Sequence record: MH494197.1
Length of the DNA stretch: 64,000 nucleotides
Reading direction: 5' to 3' (one strand)
DNA from: Escherichia phage CMSTMSU
The position numbers and the translations under genes are program-made. Numbering within the stretch: the first letter of the stretch is position 1; the number at the start of each line of letters is the position of its first letter. The notes below the pieces were generated by a model that was not told the origin of the DNA, did not search any database, and worked only from the letters and a program-made list of their open reading frames with translations. Positions 12,320 to 45,387 of this stretch are shown one piece after another.

Positions 12320-13550
12320 TTAGAACATTTGCTTGATTGCTTCAATACGCAATTCAGCAACAAAATCACGAATCTCCGATGTTTGGAGTTCACCATCTTT
12401 CACTAACTGCTGAATATCAGGTAATTCAACATCAGTATAACGATCATAAACTTTAATAATCAAATCTTCAAGTTCAGAATCAATTTCTTTGTTCAAAATG
12501 AAGTTTTCCAGTACTTTGTAAAGGAAATCTTCACCACCATTGTTTTTGATATTCATATCCAGTAAGATTTGTCCCATTTCAACTGGGGTCTTCTTACGGA
12601 AGGTTTTAATATCTTCACGGAAACGCTTGATGTAATTACTAACTTCACGTACTTAACTGGAACCTTAATGGAACCGTTAAGTACTGAATCATTATTACTT
12701 CTTCATTTTCAAAGTACTGTCCATAAGAAATATGGTTTATATTCTTCTGTACAATTTACAGAGATAGAATCAATTAATTCCAGACGTTTCTTGGTAACTG
12801 GAACTGTAGTAAATGCCTTTTCGTAATAACCAAATTGTACCAGAGTTTTGATAAACTTGGAAGGGTTTTCTTCAGAAAGTGCTTTTCGAATTCAACAAAA
12901 CACGATCTGGAACTAGATGGTCTAGTTCACCAGTACTAACCATATCTTTACACATTGTCATAGTATCATCATGGATTGTAAAGTCGGAGAACGCGTAGCG
13001 AAACGGGCCAAACGTAGAACACGCAATGGATCTTCTTTAAAGTGTTCTGATACATGACGAAGTACTTTGTTCTTGATATCAGCTTTCCCGCCATAAGGGT
13101 CGATGTGAATCTGGAGTACTGGATCATATGCAATACTATTGATTGTGAGATCACGACGATATAGATCTTGTTCTAGTGTCACACCTTTTGTATTCACTTC
13201 GAAACCACCATATCCAGTACCAGTTTTACGCTCAGTACGGGCTAATGCGTGTTCATTACCTTCTGGACTTAGATATACAGGAAATCCTTACCTACTTGCT
13301 TGTATCCAATACTTTGCAAGTATTTAATATCGGATTCGGTAGCACCGACAATAACATAATCTTTGTCTTTTGCACGGATGCCCATTAAACGGTCACGAAC
13401 GTAGCCACCAACCAAATACTTTTTCATATCATTCCCCATCAACCAATCACGTAGACGTTCCCAGAAGCCTTTTGGCTGATATTCTGGATATTCATATTCA
13501 TCTGTTCCTTGCTCGGAAACACCCCAATCTTCTTCTAATACTGTAATCAC
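12320..13550 (-). CDS. tRNA nucleotidyltransferase (CCA-adding enzyme), frameshifted
   Basis: [15 protein letters not shown]...KDKDY head-domain motifs in 13269..13550; [13 protein letters not shown] and [11 protein letters not shown] in 12958..13197; C-terminal fragment 12320..12577. Confidence 0.7.
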
Positions 13551-15062: not shown

Positions 15063-15575
15063 TCATATAAAGTAATTATACATTTTATTGTACAATATAA
15101 AAGGTCTTTCACATTATCATAAGTAATATCAGATATATCATGAATTAATGATAACTGAAAAATGAAGCTTCGTCTATCTCTACTGGGATTATAACATCAT
15201 AGTCTTCGTCAATTTTATGGGTGTAGTATTTTATGTGATCAGCATTCAACACAAGGTTGTATTTTGTATCATCTTCAATTAATCCGACAAATTGAGATTT
15301 TTGATTAATAAAAATCCAATCCCAACACAACGGTTATCTGGATATGGATAGTACCATCTATTAATAACTAGGTGTTCAGGTAAGTCCATATCATGTGTTG
15401 ATATTAAAGATTTTACAATTCCCATCCGAGAATAATTCATAATTAAAACTCCATAAGAAAAGGGACAGAATAATCTCTGTCCCTTTATTATATCTTACTC
15501 TTCGTCTTCAGTCAAGTCTTCTTGAACTGGATGTTCGGGTGTTACGGCGATGCAATTTGATGCTTTTGTCTTTAC

Positions 15576-15824
15576 CTAAGACAGTTTCCATTTTTCAAAT
15601 GAATCACCAATTGCTTTGTATAAATCTGCATCATCGGCGGTGACAATCTTACCACCTGATGTTAAAGTTACGGAATATTGATTCTTATGCTCTTTCTTCA
15701 CATGAACACCGATATAAAGTACTGAAGAATCACTAAATTTCGTTAGTACATTTGCTTCTGCATGAATCGCGTCATTGATTGCTGGAGTAATATCAACATT
15801 ACCTTGGATAACTAAATCTAGCAT
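15576..15824 (-). CDS. putative ribosome hibernation promoting factor (HPF/RaiA-like)
   Basis: MLDLVIQGNVDITPAINDAIHAEANVLTKF...VTLTSGGKIVTADDADLYKAIGDS follows the HPF pattern (L.ITG.N.EIT.AL...V..K..KL ... GG.I.A...DMY.AID). Confidence 0.4.
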   Translation of the reverse strand: MLDLVIQGNVDITPAINDAIHAEANVLTKFSDSSVLYIGVHVKKEHKNQYSVTLTSGGKIVTADDADLYKAIGDSFEKWKLS

Positions 15825-15839
15825 AATTTACCTACCTTT

Positions 15840-16457
15840 TTAGAGTGAGCTTAACAGCAAATCCGCTCTGTTTGTAACTTGGCGATACCACAAGGAATTC
15901 ATGATTTCTTTCTTGAACTTCTTAGGGTTATCCATTTTAACACTTTTCCAAAGTTTGTCAAATGTTGCCAACTTATCAACGCCCATTGTGTATGACATTT
16001 CAAACAGGATACGCTGCTGTTCTTTTGTCAGATTAACTGCATCTTTCTTCTGCATCAATAGTGTAAAGTCCTCGTAAGTCCTTTTCATATCTTGCATTAA
16101 AAGTTTGTTGGCCTGTGCTTTGGTAATCCCGTTTCTGTACTTCATTGCATCAGAATCTTTCTTACCCAAATAATGCCCATAACCAATTGTATAATTACCT
16201 TTCATGTCCTTATAGGGATGAAATTTAGAATTGTGGAAAGGAACTCCAACTTTCCCACCAAGTAATTTACGTTTGTTCTTGGACTGAAATTCAATAGAAC
16301 CTTCAGCTTCTTTGATGTGATCGACAATTTCTGGATCTTTATAATCAAACAGTACAGTCACATCTGGTAACAATACGTTCTTCAAATCCTCTTTTGTTGG
16401 GATAAAGATACCCTGAGAAGTATGAAGAGTTGCATTTAAGTTGATATTCTTCAACAA
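15840..16457 (-). CDS. T4-type lysozyme (glycoside hydrolase family 24) with about 100 aa N-terminal extension
   Basis: TIGYGHYL and SLWYRQVTNRADLL match T4 lysozyme TIGIGHLL and SRWYNQTPNRAKRV. Confidence 0.8.
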   Translation of the reverse strand: MLKNINLNATLHTSQGIFIPTKEDLKNVLLPDVTVLFDYKDPEIVDHIKEAEGSIEFQSKNKRKLLGGKVGVPFHNSKFHPYKDMKGNYTIGYGHYLGKKDSDAMKYRNGITKAQANKLLMQDMKRTYEDFTLLMQKKDAVNLTKEQQRILFEMSYTMGVDKLATFDKLWKSVKMDNPKKFKKEIMNSLWYRQVTNRADLLLSSL

Positions 16458-16517
16458 AATGACATAATCTTCAATCTGTACATTTTAGGTTTAAATTTCT
16501 GTGCAATAGAATAATAA

Positions 16518-16718
16518 CTATCTCGGTTGAACCGTATAATGTTTCTCGCTGCTTGGAACTGCCTTTGGTACTGATACCTTTAGTAGTTCCTGCTTTTGAA
16601 TTTGTACAACTTGTGGTTTTAAATTATGCACCTGACTTTCGTCTAATGATGATGCACGATCACTTTGAGAAAAACCATAAAATCCAATCGCAGCGAATAG
16701 GGCTGATGAAACTAACAC
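16518..16718 (-). CDS. small membrane protein upstream of lysozyme (holin or signal-anchor candidate)
   Basis: N-terminal hydrophobic stretch LVSSALFAAIGFYGF; position next to lysozyme. Confidence 0.25.
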   Translation of the reverse strand: MLVSSALFAAIGFYGFSQSDRASSLDESQVHNLKPQVVQIQKQELLKVSVPKAVPSSEKHYTVQPR

Positions 16719-16928
16719 GCCTATGGCAATTTTAGTTTTCAGTGCTTTTTCGCTTTTTCAAAACGCCTCCTTTGTTGGTTGTTAACAATGAGCAATCACA
16801 AAGAGGGCAAAGAGGCCATTTGCAAAAGCCTCATTGGACTTTCTACAGTACTCATTTGTTCTTTGGAACATTTAAGTAGTATAGCATACTTTTTAGTTAT
16901 ATCAAGACCTATTTACCAAATAACCACA

Positions 16929-17320
16929 TTAATCGTAGTATGTTCTACCAATGGTGATGTGATATTTGAAATATTTAGATGCCAAACCCAGTTCATTACG
17001 AATATGTGCAATGAAATCATCTTCAAACTCTATGATAAAGAATGACCGTTTCTTATTGTCTTTTACTTCTTCGATGAAAGGATCGAACTTAATCTTAACT
17101 TTCATACCATCGTACTTTTTCCAGTACTCTGGATTTGGTGGCACTTCACCACGAACGATACTGACATGTGCTCCCCATTGTGGGTCTTTAATATCAATAT
17201 GTAAGTCAGTTCTGATGAAGTACTGGTAGTATCGAACCAACTGTAATGGAAGTTGCAGTACTAACCAGAAGTCCTTCTTCTTTTCATAGTGCCACGATCT
17301 GGATCATACACCAGAGTTCC
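16929..17320 (-). CDS. putative 2H phosphoesterase (LigT/Acb1-like)
   Basis: Two H-x-[ST]-x motifs (HVSIV and HITIG) about 80 aa apart in a protein of about 130 aa. Confidence 0.35.
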
Positions 17321-17692
17321 TTCCATTTCAATCATATTTTACCTATAAATTTACATATATATTTTTATTTTCAATACGAACATAAGTTTCTAAAACATCT
17401 TTCGGAATTTTATTACTTGTTTTGTACCATGTAGTATTATCTACTAAAACAAAAGTTTCACCTTCAGTTTCACCAAATGTACTTAGTGCATAAATGAAGT
17501 AGTTTGGTGATGCACTACAATAAACATCAGCATTAATTTCAATCATATTTTACACCACAATAAAGCTTAATACAACGAGTGTAATAAACACACCCACAAT
17601 GGCGGTCATTTCAGGGTTAGCATCGTATGTATAACGGATGCACTTTAGAAAATCTTTACCAAACTTTTTTAGTCCATTCATATATTTTCCTT

Positions 17693-19074: not shown

Positions 19075-19731
19075 CTACTGAACTAAAAATAAGACTAGTC
19101 GCTTTTTAAATCCAGATAGTACATCATTCAAAACGCGTTTCATAAATGAATCAACCATTTTATTCCTCATATAATCCATATAGCAAGTTCTGCATAGACT
19201 CTTGTATGATTCATCACCACCAATAAAGACTTTATCAGTACTTTCAACTATACGGGCATTCATAGTGGCTTCTTTGCCACACTTCTGATTCTCACACACG
19301 TTCTTAAGTTCATGTATGTCATCAGCTATTTCGAACAGTCTTTGTGAACCTTCAAAAGATTGGATTCAAAATCTGTTCGTATTCCATAACAGGAAACATC
19401 AACACCATAATTATCTGCTATATCAGCTAAATGGTCAATTTGTTCTCTGTTTAAAATTGACATTCATCAACATAGATACTGTTAATGTCAACGTCATTTT
19501 TGAGTGTTTCTTTAACTTTAAGAAGAACACTAATGTCATTTTTGGAATTACTTCAGCCACAGCTTCGATGCCAATTCTTGAAGTAATCTTTCCTGTTCCA
19601 TAACGATCATCAAGTGCACTGGTTAAGTAAATTACCTTCATTCCATTTTTCTTATGGTTATATGCTTTTTGTAAAAGATGAGTACTTTTACCACTAGACA
19701 TACTACCATAGTAATATACTAATTTACCCAT
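19075..19731 (-). CDS. tk: thymidine kinase (frameshifted into two fragments)
   Basis: MGKLVYYYGSMSSGKSTHLLQ P-loop, YLTSALDDRYG, and C-terminal zinc motif CRTCY in 19075..19299. Confidence 0.85.
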
Positions 19732-26525: not shown

Positions 26526-28198
26526 CTATATTATATGTTTACAACATTTTTGAATATGATCTACGAGTTTATACAGTTTAGTGTTTTCATTCTCGTATTC
26601 CAAATCAACTTCAACTTTGAATTCTTCTTCAAGTTCCATGATCATTTCAATCCAGTCAAGCCAATCGAATTTAAATTTTTCCACGACTTCACATTTAGTA
26701 AGATGGAAGTTCATTGATACATCTTTTTCGGATGCATTTTTGTCGCGACTTGTAATGAATTTGACAATTGCTTTTTCAACGTCAGTTAGTTCACGTGTGC
26801 GATATTCTGGTTCAAGATACCATTCGCCATTATTGATAGCTTCCAACGAAAGTCTAAGTTCATGCATTAGTTTATAACGATCAGTACTTTTATGGATGCG
26901 GTTAACTTCGCGATTCAGTACACGTAGTGCGTCTTTGATTTGTTCGTTTAGCATAACAATCCTCTTATTTTTTCTGTACCATTGCATTTCACGGATATCT
27001 AATAGTACCTTCGTAGCCAACTTTATGTTTGGTCGCTTCGGTAGATGGGTCTTATGATACGCCACATTTCGGATGTAGTCAACCTTTTCGTTGAAATAAT
27101 CCATAACTTCTTGATACAACCACTTCCCGTTACGAATGTCCATCAACATAGCAGCATCCGGTCGGTGAACTTGGATGATGCCAGTTTCAAGTGCTTCCTG
27201 TGCTGTATTCAGCAGCCTGATTGTATGCATAGCATGTTTGCAGTCATAACCGTGGTGTGATTCAAGAATAGCACGTTTGGCATTACGATTCTGCTTCCAT
27301 TTGTGATAACTCTTACGGTTCTCACTATTTTCTTTGTATTCCTTTTCATTGAATTTTACAATGAGTTCAGGACGAACTTTCAATTCTTCTGTAGTACGTT
27401 CTTTGTTGAAGTAACGTAGTGAACCATCAGCATTCACTGTACTTTCATTCGGGTTGATAATTACCCCAAAGATGTTTTCACCGTAATGGATTAGTTCATA
27501 TCCAGAATTGTAATTCAATAAATTGAAATCACGATCTAATACTTTATCAGTACTATAATTATGTACTAAACGTACAAAATGATATTGTTTCAATGCTTGT
27601 GTTGAAACTAATTGTAATGAAGTATCACGCATGTATTTTTCAAAATCAATTTTTGTAGCATTGAATGGGTGAAGATTGGATTTATTCAAACGGTCAACCA
27701 AATACTGCGGGAATGTATCATACATCCATGAAAGTACTTCGTCAACTGGATGTTCTTCTAAAATTTCATTTAGTTTACGTTCAGCAATTCGTTCCTTATC
27801 GAGCCAGCCGTGGTGATTAGACATACGCTTAACCTGATTGTATGCATATCCACTGTATGAGTGTGCAATCTTTGAACTCAATAATTGCTGATTGAATGAG
27901 CGTAGATAGTCATAGATTTCAGTACTTTCTACGATGTGTTCCGGTTTAACCCATAGTGATTCAAGAATGTTTGGGTTAGCTTCAGTATACAGACTTAAGT
28001 ACTGATTGATTTCATAAAATTTAGTATCTTCTTCAGAAGTATCTGAAACTTCCTTAACATTAAAAAAGGAGTTAGGATATATTCTTTGTTTGCAAGGAAG
28101 ATACCACGATAATCTGTATCACTTTCTGGTGTGCTTGTATACGCCTGTGAACCAGCTAAGTGTTTCACAATAGTTTGTTCTAGAAAATTGTTTTTCAT
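26526..28198 (-). CDS. Pol-beta-type nucleotidyltransferase fused to a degenerate ACP-like C-terminal domain (frameshifted near N-terminus)
   Basis: N-terminal fragment 27995..28198 has GS-x9-DxD (LAGSQAYTSTPESDTDYRGIF); ORF 26526..27881 has HHGYDCKHAMHTIRLL and a C-terminal DWLDWIEMIMELEEEFKVEV segment resembling acyl carrier protein DSLD...ELVMALEEEF but with Ser replaced by Trp. Confidence 0.4.
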
Positions 28199-44569: not shown

Positions 44570-45387
44570 TTACATATTTTCTTCAGCAAATTCTGCCAGT
44601 GGTGAACGAACAACACCTTCTAGTTCGATTACACGACAACCGTCCCAGTTCTTGAACTTCTCGGTAACATAAGTTAGACCGCTGTTTACTGGACTAATGA
44701 ACTTAGAGTCAATCTGACTCAAGTTACCCATAATAACCACTTTACAGTTCATTCCTGCACGAGTCAAGATTGTTTTGCCTGAGCAGGTGTGATGTTCTGG
44801 AATTCATCAACTACTAGGATAGTATTTGTGAAAGAACGACCACGAACGAAGTTTAGTGCTTTGAACTGGATAACATTGCGTTTCATGATTTCTTCGATAC
44901 TGCCTTGTGGGTTAGCATCATCTTTGTGTAGGAATTCCAACGCATCAATTGCTGCACCACAGAAAGGAATCACTTTCTCTGCTTCAGATCCGGTAAGAAA
45001 CCAATGTCTTCGAATTGGGAATCTTGTGTTTTGGAGAAGATGATACGGTCGTATTTTTCTTCTCTAGTACTAGCTCAGTGCAGTTGCAATAGTGATTAGT
45101 GTTTTACCAGTACCTGCTGAACCTAACAGTACTGTTAGATGAACATCAGGATCTAAAATACTGTTGATTGCTAGTGCTTGCTGAATATTCTTAGCCTTGA
45201 TATCCCACACTTTAGCACGTAAAGCAACTGATTGTCCAACGTCTTGGAATACAAGAATATCTTCTGGTGTTAAAGTACCATCATCTTCTTCAATTGCAGA
45301 TTGACCTTCGTACACAAATAGAACATCAGCATTATCATATAGGTAATCACCGATGCAAATATTTTGTGGCATGATATGTTCAATCAA
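44570..45387 (-). CDS. phoH: PhoH-like ATPase (frameshifted into 3 fragments)
   Basis: Walker A GSAGTGKT in 45070..45387; Walker B VVDEFQN in 44764..44973; C-terminal fragment 44570..44767. Confidence 0.8.

Follow-up and report, generated by a model that had tools for sequence, protein, structure and literature searches.

We describe a gene on the minus strand of a 64,000-nucleotide stretch of Escherichia phage CMSTMSU (sequence record MH494197.1, hereafter the window) and predict that it encodes a minimal 2H phosphoesterase of 136 amino acids (aa) belonging to the phrog_12204 / Pfam 2H-SAK family. By sequence comparison the gene is a further member of an already catalogued family—once repaired, the protein is identical in sequence to a known one, XBS49356.1 of phage fEgEco12. 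The role that we favor, with somewhat less than even confidence, is the healing of RNA 2',3'-cyclic phosphate ends. A sequence-only reading of the same DNA had instead proposed an Acb1-like enzyme that counters CBASS, an antiphage defense in which cyclic oligonucleotides act as signals; we retain that function as a possibility, but not as the best reading.

The assignment begins with two motifs, HVSIV and HITIG, which the sequence-only reading had picked out and which are indeed present on the minus strand, 70 residues apart. Shuffling the protein 200,000 times produced such a pair (H-hydrophobic-[ST]-hydrophobic, 55–95 residues apart) in 12 cases. A scan of ~560 kb of Asteriusvirus sequence, comprising 708 six-frame stretches of 100–250 aa taken from two relatives as well as the window, found the pair in four stretches, three of which are the 2H gene. 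The fourth, at 44712-45095 of stretch L080 (PBECO4 ~144.7-145.1 kb, minus strand), gave no match to the hidden Markov model (HMM) of the 2H family and probably carries the pair by chance.

Conservation of the motifs, one of the checks named in that earlier reading, is strong. A search of 5.8 billion proteins returned 25 homologues of 133–145 aa, found in metagenomes and in jumbo phages like GAP32, CBB, fHe-Yen9-04, and XbC2; the 26 close homologues all retain His57, His127, and Thr129, and Ser59 is almost invariant. Profile searching among 1.84 billion cluster representatives extended the family to 902 clusters at E<=1e-3 (331 at E<=1e-10), and nearly all of the best 150 matches carry two HxS/T motifs 65–78 residues apart. 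In 131 full-length representatives with mutual identity below 50%, conservation is 100% for His57, 99% for His127, 98% for Thr129, 96% for Arg114, and 95% for Trp72; Ser occupies position 59 in 73% of these, and Ser or Thr in nearly all relatives.

Structure prediction, the other named check, also bears out the 2H fold: an AlphaFold2 model built from a 26-sequence alignment (pLDDT 86.6, pTM 0.79) places each motif on a beta-strand that follows a helix. Taken together, the motifs, their conservation, and the modeled fold mark the protein as a predicted 2H phosphoesterase. The highest structural score was obtained against Acb1 of Erwinia phage FBB1 (PDB 7T27; 7.2), followed by mouse hepatitis virus (MHV) ns2 (6.9), Usb1 (6.4), the penguinpox cyclic GMP-AMP (cGAMP) phosphodiesterase (6.3), PH0099 and CNPase (6.1 each), the Deinococcus radiodurans cyclic phosphodiesterase (CPDase; 6.0), LigT (5.6), AKAP18 (5.2), plant CPDase (4.9), and ASCC1 (4.8). 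Signal-degrading and RNA-end-processing 2H enzymes thus score nearly equally; since these scores are so close, and computation does not fix the substrate, gene context was used to approach function.

PDB sequence searches with the single protein and with 26- and 110-sequence profiles gave nothing significant—the best matches were the LigT-like entries 2FYH and 1VDX at E 0.3-0.5—and an NCBIfam search of the protein gave no match. Similarity to the archaeal and bacterial LigT/CPDase enzymes (PH0099, 1VGJ/1VDX; D. radiodurans CPDase, 5H7F; E. coli LigT, 4QAK/5LDI) falls below significance. The LigT/ThpR RNA 2',3'-cyclic phosphodiesterases are also larger, with 170–190 aa and ~50 residues past the second motif, whereas the protein described here has 136 aa and only 9 residues past it. 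Among viral 2H enzymes, MHV ns2 (4Z5V), rotavirus VP3 (4RPT), and the penguinpox phosphodiesterase (9BKQ) showed no sequence relationship to our protein in the PDB sequence and profile searches; these differ in being enzymes of eukaryotic viruses that target OAS or cGAS signals.

Two family resources gave matches to the protein. It matches the PHROG family phrog_12204 over its full length (protein 1–135, profile 1–138 of 138, E 4.6e-62), a family whose database label is 'unknown function'. Its sole Pfam match is to PF22547 (2H-SAK), the 2H domain found in the RNA-repair proteins known as 'Swiss Army Knife' proteins, and covers only the C-terminal third of the protein; the window and repaired proteins score 23.4-24.5 bits (E 3e-5 to 7e-5), under the curated cut-off of 27 bits, and relatives 55–60% identical score 38.9 and 35.6 bits, above it. 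All 26 close homologues match PF22547 at E<0.01, and 22 of 25 carry it as a precomputed label. Like our protein, the PF22547 profile ends just past the second HxT motif; unlike the multi-domain 'Swiss Army Knife' repair proteins, which were reportedly defined by Burroughs and Aravind in 2016, our protein stands alone. Current annotations are less informative—the RefSeq label of the PBECO4 protein is hypothetical. In fEgEco12 (PP777464) the products of g271, g272, and g274, the last being the 2H gene, are named 'SAM hydrolase', 'nucleocapsid protein', and 'viral L protein', names that find no support in Pfam (no match) or PHROG (families of unknown function).

The gene appears broken in the window, and the state of the surrounding sequence explains how this should be read. 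We assign the window to jumbo coliphage sequence of the Asteriusvirus type on nucleotide identity: 99.1% to Asteriusvirus phage fEgEco12 across 22 kb, and 87–90% to the Asteriusvirus phages PBECO4 and 121Q. Between window positions 8000 and 30000 there are 114 insertions or deletions relative to fEgEco12, of which 113 are deletions in the window and one is an insertion; the deletions cluster in A/T runs of at least 5 and at CCWGG (Dcm) sites. This bias and these sites are therefore taken as the signature of uncorrected long-read error in an unpolished assembly, and the pattern probably extends over the entire window. Genes for the lysozyme, the CCA-adding enzyme, Nudix, thymidine kinase, and RlaP are disrupted by deletions of the same types. 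Many genes look split or truncated in raw lists of open reading frames (ORFs) because of these errors; with dozens of genes apparently broken, raw ORFs cannot serve as the basis for annotating the window.

In fEgEco12 and PBECO4 (YP_009150355.1) the 2H gene is intact, with 411 nt and 136 aa in each, and the Asteriusvirus TH47 genome likewise holds a single intact copy. The window copy measures 407 nt, from two deletion errors, and a three-way alignment with fEgEco12 and PBECO4 showed that these—an A5 run shortened to A4, and the loss of a CTG—are its only differences from fEgEco12, with zero substitutions. The frame that opens at the ATG (17335-17333) differs from the motif frame and reaches a stop at 17263-17261 after 24 codons; the motif frame is closed upstream of 17303 and has a TTG at 17240 as its first start codon, and the 103-aa ORF that results aligns to positions 33–138 of phrog_12204 only. 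A tblastn search with the fEgEco12 protein joins the two parts, placing residues 1–21 at 17335-17273 (frame -1) and residues 18–136 at 17285-16932 (frame -3). The sequence-only reading had bounded the gene at 16929 and 17320; the former holds, as the stop codon occupies 16929-16931, but the latter is no gene boundary, and 392 nt is not a whole number of codons.

A start frame that runs into a stop, beside a motif frame that has no ATG start, would also be expected of a true pseudogene in which the frameshift has inactivated the gene in this phage. We regard this as extremely unlikely: against a 99%-identical relative the copy differs only by the A5-to-A4 change and the CCTGG deletion, both of the two types that account for 113 deletions to one insertion in 22 kb and that hit other genes as well, and three related phages carry intact copies. 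Because the error pattern is window-wide, we interpret the broken frame, on alignment, as a sequencing artefact and not as biology, and for the same reason a programmed frameshift was rejected. The repaired 136-aa protein was therefore used for analysis. A BFVD entry for the gene in a relative, A0A2Z5HFM2, has 103 aa, the same shortened length as the raw ORF of the window, and is 98% identical; at least one deposited Asteriusvirus genome therefore has the same frameshift or a miscalled start. Two plus-strand ORFs, at 16779-17045 and 16966-17229, were set aside since the minus-strand product has strong homologues. The AGGT that may serve as a ribosome-binding site overlaps the stop codon of an upstream 67-aa gene, and a scan for promoters and terminators around the 2H gene found sites no more often than in shuffled sequence. 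Coordinates of the gene, its parts, and its neighbors are collected in Table 1.

Table 1. Positions in the window of the 2H phosphoesterase gene, its elements, and neighboring genes.
Feature	Positions	Strand	Basis or remark
Full 2H phosphoesterase gene	16929..17335	-	Intact 411-nt coding sequence in fEgEco12 and PBECO4
Raw-window ORF with TTG start; 103 aa, both motifs, without the N-terminal 33 residues	16929..17240	-	ORF reading
Detached 5' fragment MIEMEGTLVYDPDRGTMKRRRTSG (ending at a stop codon), cut off by the frameshift	17261..17335	-	Sequence reading and alignment
Frameshift site, A4 vs A5 in relatives, after the ATG at 17287-17285	17281..17284	-	Alignment column 62
In-frame 3-nt loss, CTG of CCTGG (KPGS to KRS)	17047..17048	-	Alignment columns 300-302
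2H motif 1, HVSIV (His57 and Ser59 of the 136-aa protein)	17154..17168	-	Predicted strand 56-62
2H motif 2, HITIG (His127 and Thr129), 9 residues from the C-terminus	16947..16961	-	Predicted strand 126-132
AGGT, possible ribosome-binding site, 5 nt 5' of the ATG	17341..17344	-	Read from sequence, inferred
Pth-like gene	9809-10183	-	
Macro domain gene	10522-10995	-	
Nudix gene	11818-12210	-	
CCA-adding enzyme (tRNA nucleotidyltransferase), split into three frames by errors	12323-13427	-	
HPF/RaiA ribosome hibernation factor homologue	15522-15824	-	Pfam PF02482
LysM-lysozyme	15843-16757	-	
Thymidine kinase	19159-19731	-	
RlaP-family RNA-repair nucleotidyltransferase	26970-28198	-	PF10127, 63 bits

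Acb1 is the obvious phage enzyme for comparison, and the two proteins are alike in size and motif spacing: 136 aa and 70 residues here, 152 aa and 69 residues in T4 Acb1. Membership of the Acb1 family was nevertheless rejected. The Pfam Acb1 HMM (PF23474), which scores T4 Acb1 at 202.7 bits, gave no match to our protein even at E<=10, and a scan with an Acb1 HMM likewise picked up nothing in the 2H gene. Profile-profile alignment with hhalign (110 family members against 19 Acb1 sequences) spanned just 37 columns at 38% probability and was out of register, pairing the second motif of the 2H family with the first of Acb1—a match that reflects the internal repeat of the 2H fold and not collinear homology; the probability was 0.65% against T4 Acb1 alone. 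In Acb1 the second motif is followed by base-contacting residues and a C-terminal lid (E141, W147; residues 145–152; PMC9117128). Acb1 runs ~39 residues past that motif, whereas our protein has a longer N-terminal part instead; the lid and counterparts of E141 and W147 are missing because the chain ends 9 residues after motif 2. The catalytic tetrad is shared, being HxT/HxT in Acb1 and HxS/HxT here, with Thr at the first motif in many relatives.

An anti-defense function could also have arisen in a separate 2H family, working as Acb1 or the ns2, VP3, and poxvirus 2H phosphodiesterases do; such a nuclease would degrade CBASS cyclic di- or trinucleotides, the cyclic oligoadenylates of type III CRISPR, or 2'-5'-linked signals. 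We judge this unlikely, yet several observations speak for it. The protein is stand-alone and, like T4 Acb1, small; its conserved aromatics (W24, Y36, Y37, W54, and W72) could stack on bases, and Acb1 tops the structural matches. An Acb1-family gene is missing from the complete genome of TH47 (best E 0.034), and nothing known there fills the role. A preprint names a phrog_12204 member of phage G Acb1, by HHpred; viral 2H/LigT-like enzymes have repeatedly been recruited against nucleotide signaling (PMC11410667); and Iyer et al. (PMC7824862) place jumbo-phage 2H enzymes among predicted counter-nucleotide enzymes.

Weighed against these are the profile comparisons and the missing lid set out above, structural scores for RNA-end enzymes that nearly equal that of Acb1, and gene neighbors that, where informative, are RNA-repair genes. 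UniProt, moreover, attaches the label 'Acb1' (unconfirmed) to a separate 148-aa protein of fHe-Yen9-04, a phage that also has the 2H family; if that label is correct, a simple equivalence of the 2H family with Acb1 is disfavored. Separately, 80 of the 254 IMG/VR loci found with an Acb1 profile lie mostly in T4-like phages and none of these shares a contig with the 2H loci, a sample that is uninformative as to whether jumbo phages with the 2H gene also carry Acb1. A bolder version holds that the phrog_12204/2H-SAK-like family is a second lineage of phage 2H nucleases, sequence-unrelated to Acb1, which would destroy immune signals through a lid-less pocket formed by the N-terminal strands and so give Asteriusvirus and other Acb1-less jumbo phages an escape from CBASS or related signaling systems; we consider this quite unlikely.

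The healing of RNA ends is the role that we prefer. In Iyer et al. 2021 (PMC7824862), jumbo-phage 2H enzymes were predicted to prepare RNA for ATP-grasp ligases by clearing 2',3'-cyclic ends, and we propose catalysis, substrate, and cooperation with repair enzymes along similar lines. His57 and His127, aided by Ser59 and Thr129, would be carried by two beta-strands that face each other and would serve as general acid and base toward a ribose-attached phosphate, independently of metal. The enzyme would open the 2',3'-cyclic phosphate ends that metal-independent ribonucleases of the host leave behind on tRNA or other RNA, as the end-healing step of a phage toolkit for RNA repair and translation maintenance. 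Repair could then be finished by a phosphatase or Pnkp, RlaP, the CCA-adding enzyme, and an RNA ligase of the phage.

Gene context in the window is consistent with this proposal. The sequence-only reading had described the gene as lying away from tRNA-repair genes; this is contradicted by a CCA-adding enzyme at 3.5 kb and RlaP at 10 kb, and by RNA ligases a few genes away in sister lineages. We view the genes between 9809 and 15824—Pth-like, Macro, Nudix, CCA-adding enzyme, and HPF/RaiA—as a putative translation and RNA-maintenance island. The PF10127 score for RlaP was obtained with the intact fEgEco12 copy, and Pfam describes that family as 'RNA repair pathway DNA polymerase beta family'; the window copy of RlaP is frameshifted near 28050-28067. 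TH47 encodes an Rnl1-like gene. No tRNA genes were found in the window.

Neighbors were also compared across 66 IMG/VR loci, clustered into 21 lineages, and contigs from other collections. RNA-repair links appear in roughly one third of the 21 lineages. Phages of the GAP32/CBB/fHe-Yen9-04 group encode, 1–5 genes upstream, an RNA ligase (PF09414 plus OB domain) together with a DUF2828/DUF7788 protein. In another lineage (L006) a T4 Rnl1-type ligase (PF09511) is the immediately adjacent gene and a YqeY protein lies two genes upstream; a 16-locus lineage has a histidine phosphatase directly downstream and RNA-ligase-like proteins 4–7 genes on; and in a further one (L079) Thg1 is found two genes upstream. 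In the relative P0041 (335 aa, on a GCA_014872925.1 contig) 2H and YqeY domains are joined in a single protein; this fusion gene adjoins a T7 gp5.9-like gene (PF25708), of a family that inhibits RecBCD. In the GAP32-, CBB-, and fHe-Yen9-04-like phages the DUF2828/DUF7788 protein, of ~505 aa, is invariably encoded between RNA ligase and 2H gene; it may belong to the TROVE-like RNA-repair class mentioned by Iyer et al., and its gene is not present in the Asteriusvirus window.

Several points must be set against RNA end healing. A T4-type Pnkp is itself able to heal cyclic ends, so that a CPDase beside it would in part be redundant. No RNA ligase was found inside the window, and the polynucleotide kinase and Rnl1-type ligase of PBECO4 are ~50 kb from the 2H gene. 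About two thirds of the 21 lineages have no recognizable RNA-repair neighbor, and some place the gene among replication genes or beside a T7 gp5.9-like gene. Acb1 is the best structural match, if by a small margin. Finally, neighborhood and annotation can mislead for this fold, because T4 Acb1 (T4 gene 57B) adjoins the T4 tRNA cluster and is still labeled 'RNA ligase' in RefSeq.

The Macro gene of the island suggests one further role, as an ADP-ribose 1'',2''-cyclic phosphate (Appr>p) phosphodiesterase: the 2H enzyme would open Appr>p, a by-product of the 2'-phosphotransferase KptA/Tpt1, and Macro would then remove the 1''-phosphate. A Macro gene shares an island with the 2H gene in five lineages, the window included, and a 2H-then-Macro route has been described for jumbo phages (PMC7824862). 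We hold this role to be very unlikely; most lineages have no Macro neighbor, and in the window Macro is separated from the 2H gene by 6 kb and over 10 genes. No KptA/Tpt1 gene was identified: the annotations of PBECO4 name none in its first 150 kb, and no profile search was made for it. By annotation, PBECO4 (NC_027364) also encodes a WGR protein (gp086), a PhoH-like protein (gp091), a Nudix protein (gp094), and Sir2 (gp095) at 60.5-67.1 kb; this NAD/ADP-ribose-related cluster probably sits in the right-hand part of the window and could be relevant to counter-defense.

What the gene means for these phages depends on which role is right. If it heals RNA ends, the enzyme would be a routine part of the jumbo-phage translation-repair kit, as comparative genomics has already predicted, and the gain would be modest—a minimal 2H enzyme that can be assayed. 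The phrog_12204/2H-SAK-like family comprises at least 902 clusters at 50% identity, mostly of small stand-alone proteins; if the enzyme instead destroys immune signals, this large uncharacterized phage family would form a new class of immune-evasion nucleases distinct from Acb1, changing predictions of which phages escape CBASS-type defenses.
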